Source of the DNA: an uncultured Actinomycetota bacterium | GTDB lineage: Bacteria > Actinomycetota > Actinomycetes > JAHEKZ01 | Direction: 5' to 3' | DNA length: 64,000 nucleotides | Assembly: GCA_963718235.1 (NCBI GenBank) | Contig: CAVQYR010000001.1 | Span: forward strand, 1,760,001-1,824,000 | Shown here: positions 25,632 to 29,185 of the stretch, in pieces | Position numbering within the stretch: the stretch's first letter is position 1 | How the letters are laid out: each line of letters begins with the position of its first letter | The notes under the pieces: model-generated | Databases searched by the model: none | What the model was told of the DNA's origin: nothing | Seen by the model: the letters and a program-made list of their open reading frames with translations, nothing else | Position numbers and translations under genes: made by a program

Positions 25632-25943
25632 GTGACGAACGGGTCGGCCTTCAGCTCCGGGAACGCGGCGCTGCCCACGCATCGTCGGGACCGGGCCCAG
25701 CGCTGGGTGTTCGGGGTCACGGCTGCGCTGGCGGTCGGTGCCGTCTCGGCAACCTCGGCCACCGCCGCCGTGCTCGCCAGTCAGGCGACGACGCCCAGCC
25801 AGGGTGCGGGGACGTCCCAGGCCCAGGCAGCCGGCGGAACGCTCGGAGCGGCCAAGGCCCTGCGCCCGGCCAAGCAGACCCTGACCAGCCCGTCGCGCAG
25901 CAACCCCCAGCCGGCGCCGGCAGCCACGTCGACCGGGTCCTGA
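25632..25943 (+). CDS. Small membrane-anchored or secreted Ala/Ser/Thr/Pro-rich protein, candidate ApbE flavinylation substrate
   Basis: Basic N-region RRDRAQRW, a hydrophobic helix and a low-complexity linker ending ATSTGS; stop 1 nt before the apbE ATG. Confidence 0.7.
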   Translation: MTNGSAFSSGNAALPTHRRDRAQRWVFGVTAALAVGAVSATSATAAVLASQATTPSQGAGTSQAQAAGGTLGAAKALRPAKQTLTSPSRSNPQPAPAATSTGS

Positions 25944-25944
25944 C

Positions 25945-26917
25945 ATGCCGTCGCACCACTCGCTCCGCTGGACCCAGTGGAGCACGACCATGGAGGTCGT
26001 CGTCAGGGGTGACGACGTCGCCGCCGCCGCCGCCGCGGTGCGGCAGGAGCTGTCTGCCGTCGACGCCGCCTGCAACCGGTTCCGACCGGACTCCGAGCTG
26101 TCGGTCGTCAATGCTGCCGCCGACGGTCGGCCCACAGCCGTGGGCCCGGTGTTCGCGCACTACCTGACGGCCGCCCTCAGGATGGCCGAGGCGACCGGCG
26201 GGCTGGTCGACCCCACTCTCGGTCGGGCGCTGCGACACCTCGGCTACGACGACGACATCGCCGTCCTGAGAGCCGCGAAGGACTCGCACCCCAGTCGGGA
26301 CCCACTGCCGGTCCAGGGGGTCCTCGCCTCGGGCCGCGCCGACTGGCGCGACGTCGTCCTCGACGAGCGCACGGACTCCCCCGGTGCCTGGCTGCGCCTG
26401 CCCGCCGGAGTCGAGCTGGACCTCGGGGCCACAGCCAAGGCCCTGGCGGCCGACCGGGCCGTGGCGGCGGCGCACCGGGCCACCGGGCGCCCGGTCCTGG
26501 TGTCCCTGGGTGGCGACCTGGCCATGGCCGGCTCAGGGGACGAGCCGTGGCTGGTCGGGGTCGCCGAGACGGTCCAGACCGCCCAGGACCCGGCCGAGCA
26601 GGTGCTCACCGGCGACGGCGGGCTGGCCACCAGCACGACCCTGGCCCGACGCTGGACGACGGCGCAGCGGCGGGTTCCACCACCTGCTGGACCCGATCAC
26701 CGGTCTGCCGGTCCAGGAGTACTGGCGCACGGTCACGGTGTCGGCCGAGTCCTGCCTGCAGGCCAACGCCGCATCGACGGCGGCCGTGGTCCTCGGTCGC
26801 GGAGCCGCCGGCTGGCTGGCCGGCCAGGAGCTGCCCGCGCGTCTCGTGCGACACGACGGCCACGTGGTGACGACCCCGGGCTGGCCCGACACCGAACGGA
26901 CGGGGGCCGTGGCATGA
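25945..26917 (+). pseudogene. apbE: FAD:protein FMN transferase ApbE, frameshifted by one extra base near 26665 (pseudogene or sequencing error)
   Basis: One frame gives CNRFRPDSELS, TGGLVDPTLG, ELDLGATAKA, LVSLGGD and GLATS. The +1 frame continues GGFHHLLDPITG...TVTVSA..C.QANAASTAA. The span is 973 nt = 3n+1. Confidence 0.85.
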
Positions 26918-27618
26918 GCTGGCTCACCGACGGCGCGGCGCTGTGGTACCTGAACCGGGCCACCGGGCTGGTCGACCTCGTCCTGTTCACCTTGGTCGTG
27001 GTGATGGGTGTCGTGGCCACCTCACGCACCTCCCCGCGCTGGTGGCCACGGTTCGCGACCGTGTCACTGCACCGGTCGATGAGCCTGCTCGCGGTGGTCC
27101 TGCTCGTCGTGCACGTCGTGGCGGCGGTGGCCGACAGCTACGTCGACCTGACCTGGGTCGACGTGCTCGTGCCCTTCGCCTCCAGCTACCGCACCTTCTG
27201 GCTCGGGCTCGGCACCGTGGCCTTCGACCTGTTCGCCGCAGTGGTGGTGACCAGTCTGCTGCGGCACCGGATCGGCCCGCGCACCTGGCGCTGGGTGCAC
27301 CTCCTGTCCTATGCCGCCTGGCCGGTTGCCGTCGTCCACGGCCTGGGCACCGGCAGCGACGCCAGCACCCTGCCGGTCATCGCCCTGACCTTCGTCTGCG
27401 TCACCGCAGTCGCCATGGCGGCGGCCTGGCGCAGCTCCACCCTGGACGTCGCCTGGCCCGGTCGCCTCGCCCTCGTCGCCCTCGCCCTGGCCCTCCCGGC
27501 CTGGCTCGGGACCTGGGTCCGCATGGGCCCGCTCCAGCCGGACTGGTCCCAGCGGGCCGACCTCGCCCCGTCCCCGTCCCAGGTCACCGACGCCCTCACC
27601 TCTGAGGAGGCCTCATGA
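26914..27618 (+). CDS. Ferric reductase-like (MsrQ-like) transmembrane cytochrome b
   Basis: LWYLNRATG and four candidate heme His (SLHRSMS, VVHVV, WRWVHLLSY, VVHGLGTGSD); ATGA overlap with apbE. Confidence 0.87.
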   Translation: MSWLTDGAALWYLNRATGLVDLVLFTLVVVMGVVATSRTSPRWWPRFATVSLHRSMSLLAVVLLVVHVVAAVADSYVDLTWVDVLVPFASSYRTFWLGLGTVAFDLFAAVVVTSLLRHRIGPRTWRWVHLLSYAAWPVAVVHGLGTGSDASTLPVIALTFVCVTAVAMAAAWRSSTLDVAWPGRLALVALALALPAWLGTWVRMGPLQPDWSQRADLAPSPSQVTDALTSEEAS

Positions 27619-28949
27619 CGCCCGGGTCCACGTCCTCCCGTGAGACCGTCGCCGCCCGCGGGTCGACCGTTCACACGCCGCGGCTGCTGGCCGGTGTGCT
27701 GCGCGACCGACCGTTGAGCCTGGTCGAGCACCTCGCGGTGCACGGCCCGCTCCCGGTGGTGGACCGCGGCTGGACCGGCGCGGGGTCACGGAGCCGCACG
27801 CGGGTGCTGCTGCACGAGATCCAGACCGCAGGTATCGGTGGCAGAGGGGGCGCGGGCTTCCCCTTCGCGCGCAAGCTCGCCGCCGTGGCCGCCCAGAGGA
27901 GACGCCCGGTCGTCGTGGTCAACGCCGCCGAGAGCGAGCCGGCAGCGCACAAGGACGCGACGCTGGCCACCCTCACCCCCCACCTCGTGCTGGACGGCGC
28001 GGCCGTGTCGGCCCGACTGCTGGGCGCCCGGGAGGTGGTCGTCTGGACGCACCGGGGCGAGGCCGCGGTCTCCCGCGCTCTCCGGGCCGCCGTCGGCCAA
28101 CGCGACGACCGCGGGCTGCGGTGGCGGGTGGTCGACGGTCCAGACCGGTACGTGGCCGGGGAGTCATCGGCCATCGTGCGGCACCTTTCGGGCGGGCCGG
28201 CCAAACCCACGACGACCCCACCTCGGGTCGCCGAGCGAGGGGTCGGCGGCGCTCCGACCCTGTTGTCCAACGCCGAGACCTTCGCCCACGTCGCGCTCGT
28301 GGTCCGGCACGGGGCCCCCTGGTTCCGCTCCCTGGGCACGGTCGACGAGCCCGGAACCCTGCTGCTCACCCTCACGGGAGCGGCGCAGCACCCCGGCGTG
28401 GTCGAGGTCCCGTTCGGGGCCCGGCTGGGCGCCGTGGTCGACACCTTCGGGGGCCTGGCCGAGCCCGTCGAGGCGGTCCTCGTCGGTGGGTACGGCGGAC
28501 GATGGCTCACCTGGGCCGACGCGGCCGCGCTGCCGGTGACCCGGCAGGCGTTCCGCAGCGTCGGTGCCGACCTCGGCGTCGGCGTGATCGGTCTGCTGCC
28601 GCGCCGCCGGTGCGGGCTGGCCGAGACCGCACGGTTGACCCGGTGGATGGCCGATCAGTCCGCCGGCCAGTGCGGACCGTGCGTGAACGGGCTGCCCGCC
28701 ATGGCCGGAGCGTTCGAGAGCCTCGTGCGCTCGGGCAACGCCCAGACCCCGACCCTGCTGCGCCGGTGGGCCCGCCAGGTGGCCGGTCGCGGGGCGTGCC
28801 ACCATCCCGACGGAGTGGCCCATCTCGTCGACAGCGCCCTCGACGTGTTCACCGAGGCGATCGACCGGCACCTGCTCGATGGGAGCTGTCCTGGCTGCGC
28901 TGAACCGCCCGTGCTCCCGCTCCCGACCTCGCAGGGTGGGTGGCGCTGA
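27615..28949 (+). CDS. Stand-alone NuoF-like NAD(P)H:acceptor flavoprotein with FMN, SLBB and Fe-S domains
   Basis: GRGGAGFP, NAAESEP..HKD, YVAGESSA, PTLLSNAETF, SAGQCGPCVNG and RGACHHPDG. Confidence 0.87.
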   Translation: MTPGSTSSRETVAARGSTVHTPRLLAGVLRDRPLSLVEHLAVHGPLPVVDRGWTGAGSRSRTRVLLHEIQTAGIGGRGGAGFPFARKLAAVAAQRRRPVVVVNAAESEPAAHKDATLATLTPHLVLDGAAVSARLLGAREVVVWTHRGEAAVSRALRAAVGQRDDRGLRWRVVDGPDRYVAGESSAIVRHLSGGPAKPTTTPPRVAERGVGGAPTLLSNAETFAHVALVVRHGAPWFRSLGTVDEPGTLLLTLTGAAQHPGVVEVPFGARLGAVVDTFGGLAEPVEAVLVGGYGGRWLTWADAAALPVTRQAFRSVGADLGVGVIGLLPRRRCGLAETARLTRWMADQSAGQCGPCVNGLPAMAGAFESLVRSGNAQTPTLLRRWARQVAGRGACHHPDGVAHLVDSALDVFTEAIDRHLLDGSCPGCAEPPVLPLPTSQGGWR

Positions 28950-29185
28950 TGGCCACGGTCGCCCGGACCACGCTGCCTGCCCAGCAGGTCGGCCGTCTGC
29001 ACGTCGACTGGCTGCGCTGCGACGGGCACGGCATCTGCGCAGAGGTGGCCCCCGAGCTCGTTCGGCTCGACGACTGGGGCTACCCGATCGTGGCCGACGA
29101 GGGGGTGCCGCGGTCACTCGAGGGGCTGGCTCGTGAAGCAGTGAACCTGTGCCCGGCGCTGGCCCTGCGGCTCGGGACGCGCTAG
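28949..29185 (+). CDS. Ferredoxin (CxxHxxC...CP type)
   Basis: [17 protein letters not shown]...LDDWGYP...[15 protein letters not shown] coupling to the upstream gene. Confidence 0.9.

Follow-up and report, generated by a model that had tools for sequence, protein, structure and literature searches.

We analysed a 64,000-nucleotide stretch of DNA from an uncultured Actinomycetota bacterium (assembly GCA_963718235.1, contig CAVQYR010000001.1, positions 1,760,001 to 1,824,000 of the forward strand), hereafter the window, with a focus on a compact gene cluster at positions 25632-29185 that encodes a small membrane-anchored protein, the FAD:protein FMN transferase ApbE, a membrane protein with a ferric reductase domain (hereafter Fre), a NuoF-like flavoprotein and a ferredoxin. 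The cluster sits between pup and dop, on the strand opposite to mpa, dop, pup, prcB, prcA and pafA. An initial annotation had described five overlapping, co-directional genes in this position and had read them as a candidate route for electrons from NAD(P)H to the cell surface. The open reading frames (ORFs) of the plus strand (25632-25943, 25945-26917, 26914-27618, 27615-28949 and 28940/28949-29185) and the junctions between them (in order, a 1-nt gap, ATGA, ATGA and TGATG) are as it described, and the GC content at third codon positions (GC3) is coding-like, at 0.88-0.95, across all five. Its domain calls all hold by Pfam, except that apbE is not one ORF: a frameshift near position 26668 had been overlooked. 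The genome that holds the window is denoted G000, and the L and G numbers below denote the loci and genomes compared. The features of the locus are as follows.

25199-25420, minus strand: pup, flanking the cluster on the opposite strand
25632-25943, plus strand: small bitopic protein of 103 amino acids (aa), no Pfam or NCBIfam family, GC3 0.89, ending in ..ATSTGS-stop; candidate ApbE substrate ("flavin tail")
25945-26667, plus strand: N-terminal two-thirds of ApbE, frame 1; Pfam ApbE 115.9 bits over profile positions 3-204; N-terminus not hydrophobic
26668-26674, plus strand: site of a +1 frameshift (one extra base); a contig of metagenome run X2 is one letter shorter at 26668, and G001 is in frame
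26669-26917, plus strand: C-terminal third of ApbE, frame 2 (..FHHLLDPITG..); Pfam ApbE 42.7 bits over profile positions 208-257; stop overlaps the next start (ATGA)
26914-27618, plus strand: Fre, predicted six-helix dihaem cytochrome b of 234 aa; PF01794 36.1 bits; MsrQ/NOX/STEAP-like
27615-28949, plus strand: NuoF-like flavoprotein of 444 aa; Complex1_51K 115.5 bits, NADH_4Fe-4S 55.3 bits
28949-29185, plus strand: single-cluster ferredoxin, 78 aa from the ATG at 28949 (81 aa from the GTG at 28940); Fer4_15 49.4 bits; 3' end overlaps the dop stop region
29182-30699, minus strand: dop, flanking the cluster on the opposite strand, convergent with the ferredoxin gene

The conservation of the cluster was assessed in two samples. 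The first consists of loci found via the NuoF-like protein alone, from 10 named public genomes and 20 relatives which, together with the window, make 31; the second is an even phylum-wide sample of 301 genomes, in which a match with an E-value of 1e-55 or better was taken as an orthologue of the NuoF-like protein and 12 loci were fetched. In the first sample, the ferredoxin gene adjoins the NuoF-like gene at all 31 loci, and the Fre gene adjoins it in the same direction at 30 of the 31, the exception being cut by a contig end; ApbE is present at 24 loci and all five genes at 20. The phylum-wide sample yielded a NuoF-like orthologue in 28 of the 301 genomes (~9% of the sampled Actinomycetota), with Fre beside it at 8 of the 12 fetched loci and the full five-gene set at 5. 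Thus, the module is conserved across loci, and the observation that the initial annotation had named as fatal to its reading, namely that the five genes do not co-occur in other genomes, is not what the survey of co-occurrence returned. The location between dop and pup is confined to a few lineages: both genes flank the cluster at 4 of the 31 loci (the window, L002, L004 and G003) and one of them does so at two more (G001 and L049), and other contexts are found in metagenome-assembled genomes (MAGs) of Solirubrobacterales, in Goekera deserti, in a Marmoricola MAG and in a Nanopelagicales MAG. Because this position is lineage-specific, no functional tie to pupylation is indicated.

The putative electron donor of the module consists of the NuoF-like protein and the ferredoxin. 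Both the Complex1_51K and the NADH_4Fe-4S score of the former exceed the respective cut-offs, and its SLBB region reaches only 18.1 bits, compared to a cut-off of 27; these are the regions that it has in common with NuoF, HoxF and HydB. The FMN loop GRGGAGFP, which aligns to that of HydB and Nqo1, and the ESEP motif are kept, and the best match in the Protein Data Bank is to the flavoprotein subunits of hydrogenases and complex I (E 1.2e-42). Seven residues, C333, C353, C356, C395, C425, H397 and H419, show no variation across 30 sequences; C333 and C425, as well as the two histidines, are additions compared to NuoF, HoxF and HydB. The initial annotation had pointed out that no other nuo gene accompanies the NuoF-like gene, and this extends beyond the window: neither the window cluster nor the loci of 30 relatives contain a nuo gene, and there is no NuoE-like partner. 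Instead, the protein is paired with, and sometimes fused to, a three-cysteine ferredoxin. In L059 (7836-9284, minus strand, 483 aa) and L060 (7903-9513, minus strand, 537 aa), the NuoF-like protein and the ferredoxin are encoded in one frame, with the ferredoxin at the C-terminal side, which suggests that the two work together, with direct hand-over of electrons. The CxxHxxC motif noted earlier in the ferredoxin is real and conserved: in 31 sequences, C24, C30 and the C68-P69 pair are invariant (CxxHxxC..CP, three cysteines in all), and the middle histidine is common, not invariant. We take its cluster to be of the [3Fe-4S] rather than the [4Fe-4S] type. Prediction of a complex between Fre and the NuoF-like protein plus ferredoxin, with alignments as input, gave a score of 0.23 (0.13 and 0.23 in individual runs) relative to a mark of 0.32, a result that counts neither way. 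At the loci with the fused gene, L059 and L060, Fre is divergent and has a long C-terminal tail of low complexity, and neither a small protein nor ApbE is encoded. Distant paralogues of the NuoF-like protein (~40% identity), also paired with a ferredoxin, occur in L071, L072 and L074, which belong to one genus with genomes of 5-6.5 Mb; no Fre, ApbE or small protein is encoded near them.

Fre matches the ferric reductase domain (Ferric_reduct, PF01794, cut-off 28 bits) and is the sole such protein encoded in G000. The four histidines to which the initial annotation had drawn attention, H53, H67, H129 and H142, occur in every one of 29 aligned sequences and in 29-30 of 30 in a second alignment, and their spacing, H-x13-H and H-x12-H, is the pattern of the dihaem domains of the NOX, STEAP and MsrQ type. 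An AlphaFold2 (AF2) model of the protein (pLDDT 90.7, pTM 0.81) has six transmembrane helices and, when compared to known structures with VIA-align, gives a Z-score of 14.0 with SpNOX (rmsd 3.5 over 151 residues; residues 8-177 of the model and 26-183 of the chain), 13.4 with Dcytb, 13.2 with the transmembrane domain of NOX5 and 13.0 with STEAP4. The top 19 rows of this search are all dihaem transmembrane electron carriers, although Z-scores of 13-14 are borderline for helical bundles. The fold assignment is drawn from VIA-align, not from Foldseek, which with the same model returned E-values of 0.03-0.6 and none at 0.001 or better. Together, the histidine pattern and the NOX/STEAP-like fold support the MsrQ-like dihaem character proposed for this protein. 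Judging from loop charges and the register with SpNOX, Fre would have an N-out/C-out topology, and we predict that H53 and H129 are the ligands of an inner haem and H67 and H142 those of an outer one. The loop that follows H142 (residues 141-149, window positions 27334-27360) has the sequence H-G-L-G-T-G-S/T-D, in which G147 never varies and D149 hardly does, and looks similar to the ..TGS ending of the small protein. In L053 (9282-10406, minus strand) and L061 (9341-10447, minus strand), Fre has ~150 extra C-terminal residues after the conserved GPLxPxW..RAGTP stretch; the predicted topology would place these residues on the outer side of the membrane.

The resemblance to NOX and STEAP proteins (SpNOX, 8qta; NOX5, 5o0t; STEAP4, 6hcy) extends from the transmembrane fold and the paired histidines to a nicotinamide-dependent flavoprotein as the cytosolic donor, here a predicted one. 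However, here the dehydrogenase is a separate FMN/Fe-S protein of the NuoF-like type plus a ferredoxin, not a fused FAD/NADPH domain, and, compared to NOX, Fre lacks the first helix and has an extra C-terminal one. A parallel in organisation is that of Escherichia coli MsrQ and the soluble flavin reductase of that organism, also named Fre, which Juillan-Binard reportedly called a "two-component NOX-like system" in 2017 (cited in PMC8238504). In both cases, a stand-alone haem b membrane protein would receive its electrons from a distinct NAD(P)H-dependent protein in the cytosol; in the clusters described here, by contrast, there is no MsrP-type partner nearby, the donor comes from a different family, and ApbE and a tagged small protein are added.

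This small protein consists, in the window, of a basic N-terminus (HRRDRAQR), a single weakly hydrophobic helix and a disordered tail rich in Ala, Pro, Ser and Thr. The same build is common to all its counterparts: a basic N-terminus, often with ..GLRRLR.., a helix rich in Ala, Gly, Thr and Val with a conserved TG and moderate hydropathy (mean Kyte-Doolittle value 1.25-2.4), a tail of ~60-150 residues (21% Ala, 17% Pro, 16% Ser, 11% Thr) and a fixed set of four residues at the very end. Among the cluster-linked small proteins of the first sample, 19 of 21 end exactly in [ST][GST][GA]S, and in the remaining two TGAS lies 3-4 residues before the end; by type, the tags in this sample are SGGS (11), SSGS (4), TGGS (2), SGAS (1), TGAS (1) and STGS (1, in the window). 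In the second sample, five further small proteins end in SGGS, and the small protein of G001 ends in TTGS, so that a tag is found at or near the end of 27 small proteins altogether. The background frequency of the tag in G000 is far lower, with 25 occurrences among 18,861 ORFs of at least 60 aa (0.13%) and 11 among 5,624 coding-like ORFs (~0.2%). The tails between the helix and the tag cannot be aligned (mean column identity 18%), and only the initiator methionine and the last serine are invariant. Because the tag is held while the tails do not align, selection acts on the tag and not on the sequence of the tail. Neither Pfam nor NCBIfam has a family for these proteins: searches with 23 of them at E-values up to 1 gave scattered chance matches and no TAT_signal, and a search of a protein atlas with the small protein returned only unnamed Actinomycetota clusters.

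The tag resembles the recognition motif of ApbE, D-x-x-[S/T]-G-A-[S/T], in which the final residue receives the FMN; a stretch of seven residues is enough, the motif works best at a protein terminus, the Asp plays a minor role, and there is partial tolerance at the Asp, Gly and Ala positions (PMC12052999, in the parts of that paper considered here). The full motif is matched by the small protein of L008 (Goekera deserti, ..DASSGAS) and by a protein encoded elsewhere in G000 (L070b, ..DTSTGAS), and the tag of the window protein has the acceptor Ser and the Gly, without the Ala of the motif and without the Asp. The tagged protein is also linked to ApbE by gene order: the coupling of the two genes is tight, with an overlap or a 1-nt gap. 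The type of tag follows the type of ApbE, such that T-[ST]-T-G-A-S tails accompany the divergent ApbEs of L062, L065, L066 and the second locus of G000, and SGGS or S[ST]GS is found with the main type. Where ApbE is encoded elsewhere (L001, L051), the small gene still lies immediately upstream of the Fre gene. With respect to ApbE itself, both parts of the window protein exceed the Pfam cut-off (PF02424, 25.6 bits), and the ApbE of the relative L002 aligns to Thermotoga maritima ApbE (1vrm) with an E-value of 2.8e-25, including the DLGxxAK, GGD, ATS and HHxxDP blocks. Other candidate substrates are wanting: as noted earlier, the cluster contains no FMN_bind domain, as judged by Pfam, and no match to FMN_bind, NQR2_RnfD_RnfE or DUF2271 was found in G000, which is 95% complete. 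This genome encodes four anchored, coding-like tagged ORFs, two of which lie beside an ApbE gene, namely that of the window and one at the second ApbE locus. The small protein is thus likely to be a flavin carrier that stands in for the missing FMN_bind domain. The second locus (L070, positions 9956-11819, corresponding to ~631.9-633.8 kb of contig 2 of G000) encodes an intact ApbE without a signal peptide, preceded by two small anchored tagged proteins, one ending in ..TTTTGASGATAP-stop and the other, L070b, carrying ..DTSTGAS followed by an acidic tail; the flanking genes are a beta-lactamase-family gene and a pyridoxal phosphate (PLP) decarboxylase gene, with no cytochrome nearby. In G003, in which Fre, the NuoF-like protein and the ferredoxin are kept between dop and pup, the ApbE genes are elsewhere in the genome, and a 55-aa remnant of the small protein, comprising the anchor only, overlaps the Fre start (L048, reverse complement 7636-7803).

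We propose that these genes form a conserved actinobacterial module in which electrons from NAD(P)H in the cytosol cross the membrane and reach an FMN on the terminal serine of the small anchored protein, a proposal that we consider to have an even chance of being correct. The NuoF-like protein would oxidise NAD(P)H at its FMN and pass the electrons via its own Fe-S cluster to the small ferredoxin, presumably of the [3Fe-4S] type; the ferredoxin would reduce the inner haem of the six-helix cytochrome b, Fre, from which the electrons would proceed to the outer haem; and the outer haem would reduce an FMN that ApbE has joined to this serine in a phosphoester linkage. At the end of a disordered tail of 60-150 residues, this FMN could serve as a tethered one- or two-electron carrier that reaches into the cell envelope, where ferric iron, oxygen or an envelope enzyme are possible acceptors. 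The small protein would take the place of the FMN_bind-domain protein found in ordinary MsrQ-like flavinylation clusters.

The NAD(P)H-to-surface path envisaged in the initial annotation is therefore a reasonable one, and its outline has already been published. In the parts of the study of Meheust et al. (2021, eLife, PMC8238504) that bear on this question, 1,797 MsrQ-like flavinylation clusters are reported, mostly actinobacterial and usually with apbE and an FMN_bind gene, and 31 of these include a gene for a NuoF-like protein, for which NAD(P)H was proposed to be the donor. The present clusters agree with this subtype in the combination of apbE, a PF01794 dihaem protein and a PF10589 NuoF-like protein, in the predominance of Actinobacteria and in the proposed donor; they differ in that an FMN_bind gene is missing and ApbE has neither a signal peptide nor a lipobox, and they add the family-less, C-terminally tagged small protein and a dedicated ferredoxin. 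By the working definition given there, the window cluster has the PF01794 gene together with apbE and lacks the signal peptide or lipidation site. Given that the pipeline, as described in the same paper, required such a signal on ApbE, FMN_bind, DUF2271 or DUF3570, it probably missed most loci of the present kind, although the 31 NuoF-like clusters may already include some of them. According to the same text, the ApbE substrates were not identified in 4% of genomes, and its passages on the C-terminus, disorder, linkers and small proteins make no mention of a tail such as the one described here. The initial annotation had presented the architecture as one that lacks experimental characterisation; this stands insofar as the literature searched yielded neither a description of such a tail nor an experiment on this type of cluster, whereas the architecture itself is in print. 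The nearest analogue of the tail is found in ApbE-flavinylated FMN_red proteins, in which the tag is located on an unstructured C-terminal extension of a protein that also has a flavin-binding domain (Huang et al. 2024, preprint, 10.1101/2024.03.13.584918, in the portion considered here). These proteins and the engineered Flavin-tag (PMC12052999) share with the small protein an ApbE motif on an unstructured C-terminal stretch; here, however, the protein has no folded domain to receive the tethered FMN and consists of a membrane anchor with a disordered tail. What is new, as far as can be judged from the sequences, are the conserved domain-less, C-terminally tagged small protein and the apparently signal-less ApbE.

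Several observations weigh against the proposed electron path. Every cofactor, the direction of electron flow, the acceptor, and both the flavinylation and the extracellular location of the tail are predicted from gene content, conservation, motifs and fold, and the neighbourhood of the cluster has no conserved gene for an acceptor, an iron transporter or a reductase among the loci compared. On the donor side, the NuoF-like protein falls below the cut-off of every NuoF model (189.7 bits on TIGR01959, compared to a cut-off of 558.65) and, given also its 33% identity to the NuoF-type protein of G000, is a paralogue and not NuoF itself. The first cysteine of its CxxCxxC motif is replaced by Ala (..SAGQCGPC..), with C353, C356 and C395 aligned to their NuoF counterparts, and the window protein reads GES where the family has GEE. 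On the acceptor side, the most common tags, SGGS and SSGS, and the STGS of the window depart from [S/T]GA[S/T] at the Ala and end in Ser, and both a Ser acceptor and changes at Gly or Ala lower the efficiency of flavinylation (PMC12052999, same parts). Furthermore, the tail is absent or truncated in L048, L052, L054, L055, L059, L060 and L075, and L079 has a tail without the tag, so the core of Fre, NuoF-like protein and ferredoxin can exist without the tail.

These departures could mean that the tag is not a flavinylation site at all. The small protein would then be an anchor, assembly or regulatory subunit, ApbE would serve another substrate, flavin trafficking or FAD hydrolysis as a pyrophosphatase, and the remainder would be a two-component reductase of the NOX/MsrQ type with the outer haem as the last centre. 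This is compatible with the difference of the dominant SGGS from the canonical SGAT/TGAT, with the loci that have the core without the tail or without a local ApbE, G003 with its anchor remnant being a case in point, with the conserved small-residue TG in the helix, which suggests helix packing, and with the existence of an FAD-hydrolysing ApbE relative, Ftp, in the literature, in the portion considered here. However, the conservation of the tag at the exact C-terminus far above background, the tight translational coupling to ApbE, the co-variation of tag type with ApbE type, the failure to find any other known family of ApbE substrates in G000 among those searched for, and a second ApbE locus that holds two more tagged small proteins and no cytochrome all argue for flavinylation, and we regard a role of the tag outside it as quite improbable.

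If the tag is a site of flavinylation, the compartment in which this occurs has to be considered. The basic residues in the 15-residue flanks of the helix are strongly biased, with 90 Lys and Arg on the N-terminal side and 19 on the C-terminal side in 20 small proteins, which predicts an N-in/C-out orientation, with the tag outside. In contrast, no hydrophobic N-terminus is present on the ApbEs of all 22 relatives, on the window copy or on the second copy of G000, as measured by the maximum mean hydropathy of 15-residue stretches within the first 45 residues (at most 1.35 in all cases) and not with a dedicated signal-peptide predictor; accordingly, all these ApbEs are predicted to be cytosolic. 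With ApbE inside and the tag outside, either flavinylation would precede export or the topology call would be wrong. The FMN-bearing surface protein of the initial annotation thus fits the conserved C-terminal tag of ApbE type, whereas an ApbE without a signal leaves extracytosolic flavinylation unexplained. Flavinylation in the cytosol followed by export is one option, for which the C-terminal position of the tag and the tight translational coupling would be well suited; alternatively, ApbE may leave the cell by an unrecognised route. A twin arginine is found in the N-terminal flank of 14 of the 20 small proteins; as it is not universal, dependence of these proteins on the Tat system is a guess. 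It is unlikely that ApbE is anchored on the outer side through a conserved frameshift fusion with the small protein, because the small gene and apbE stand in a +1 or a -1 relation that differs by locus.

Alternatively, all components except the cytochrome could be cytosolic, so that the tail stays inside and its FMN either acts as a swinging arm between the NuoF-like protein or ferredoxin and the inner haem or fills the FMN site of the NuoF-like protein, tethering it to the membrane, with the outer haem reducing the external acceptor directly, as in NOX and STEAP. This would bring FAD, ApbE, the NuoF-like protein and the ferredoxin together in a single compartment, in keeping with the lack of a signal peptide on all 22 cluster ApbEs and on both copies of G000 and with the only moderate hydrophobicity of the membrane segment of the small proteins; cytosolic ApbEs have been documented (PMC12052999, same parts), and the tags of ApbE-linked FMN_red proteins reach a flavin site on unstructured C-terminal extensions (10.1101/2024.03.13.584918, same portion). 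Nevertheless, the charge bias predicts the opposite orientation, the conserved basic N-terminal motif (often GLRRLR) would have to lie outside, and tails of 60-150 residues far exceed the need of a cytosolic arm, so that we consider this arrangement improbable. Returning to a tail in the envelope, we tentatively suggest, as a possibility short of even, that the small proteins represent a new, domain-less class of ApbE substrates, a "flavin on a leash", which would be loaded with FMN by a translationally coupled cytosolic ApbE before export and would then shuttle electrons from the outer haem of the NOX-like cytochrome through the thick actinobacterial envelope.

A separate difficulty is specific to the window, where ApbE is split over two frames, frame 1 covering profile positions 3-204 and frame 2 positions 208-257. 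The switch occurs in ..CGCAGCGGCGGGTTCCACCAC.., near 26668-26674, between ..ARRWTTAQRR and FHHLLDP..; frame 1 has no stop there and runs into the Fre gene, giving a 557-aa ORF. The contig of metagenome run X2 mentioned above (192 nt, depth 2.3, 5 mismatches, 97% identical) is one letter short at 26668 and in frame, the ApbE of G001, from the same genus, continues in a single frame across the site, ..TLARRWLTARGTAHH, up to the contig end (the next contig begins with VDPSTGLP..), and ApbE is one uninterrupted ORF in all 22 relatives, which shows that the frameshift is private to this assembly. A comparison with G003 over ~52 kb of synteny brought up no further split gene, so that the assembly is not rich in indels, and either an assembly error or a real mutation may account for the shift. 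In the latter case, the flavin arm could be decaying in this genome, with the operon persisting as a haem-based conduit only or heading to loss, a scenario that would be in line with the lack of other split genes in that stretch and with the sister genus represented by G003, which lacks a local ApbE and most of the small gene. It is at odds, however, with the in-frame G001 and X2 sequences, with the coding-like GC3 (0.92 and 0.90) and conserved motifs of both halves, with the nature of the change, one extra base in a G/C-rich run being a typical assembly error, and with the intact second ApbE gene of G000, on contig 2, the only other one in the genome; we therefore see decay as possible and somewhat doubtful. 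Flavinylation in this genome would rely on that second ApbE, unless the shift is an assembly error. In another MAG, the NuoF-like gene is split over three frames by frameshifts or assembly errors (L010, 8001-9147).

Little can be said about the regulation of the cluster from the window itself, where a search for the IdeR-type iron-box consensus with up to 3 mismatches gave no match and a scan of 25300-29400 for sigma-70 promoters and terminators gave no site; both scans are uninformative for an actinobacterium with 70% GC. At 18 of 39 loci, the window not among them, the cluster is adjoined by genes for an OmpR-type response regulator and a HAMP/HisKA kinase, placed divergently, upstream or downstream (for example, L008:9208-11870, L051:4827-6742 and L063:3291-5287); no NCBIfam equivalog passes its cut-off for this pair, and the count, alone among the results given here, is based on a listing of neighbour clusters in which overlapping ORFs in alternative frames were merged. 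Contigs of the sediment metatranscriptome run X16 match window positions 25608-25862, 27179-27329 and 28274-28451 with 1-4 mismatches, which hints weakly at transcription of the small, Fre and NuoF-like genes in close relatives; contigs from an RNA library do not prove transcription, and stretches that they leave uncovered carry no information. With regard to habitat, the sequencing runs share at most 0.37 of the sampled words. Just downstream of pafA, at 21136-22161 on the minus strand, the window contains an ORF whose product begins like a lipoprotein (..LLLAGCGND..) and is made up of two halves that repeat each other; by eye, we presume it to be a tandem FKBP-type isomerase.

Post-translational flavinylation is an emerging means of electron transfer outside the cytosol. 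With regard to the wider significance of the module, the trio of NuoF-like protein, ferredoxin and cytochrome b would amount to a split, Fe-S-containing version of the NADPH oxidase architecture. The apparently signal-less ApbE raises the question of where the flavin is attached and by which route it crosses the membrane. If the flavin is loaded in the cytosol and exported on the tail, this would explain some of the "orphan ApbE" genomes and would be the first case of a flavin cofactor that is taken through the membrane by the protein to which it is attached. Should a bare C-terminal tag on a disordered, anchored peptide be a natural substrate of ApbE, the definition of such substrates would widen from folded flavin-binding domains to short linear motifs, and the tagged small proteins would be the natural counterpart of the engineered Flavin-tag and, tethered as they are, simple mediators that pass electrons through the walls of Gram-positive cells.

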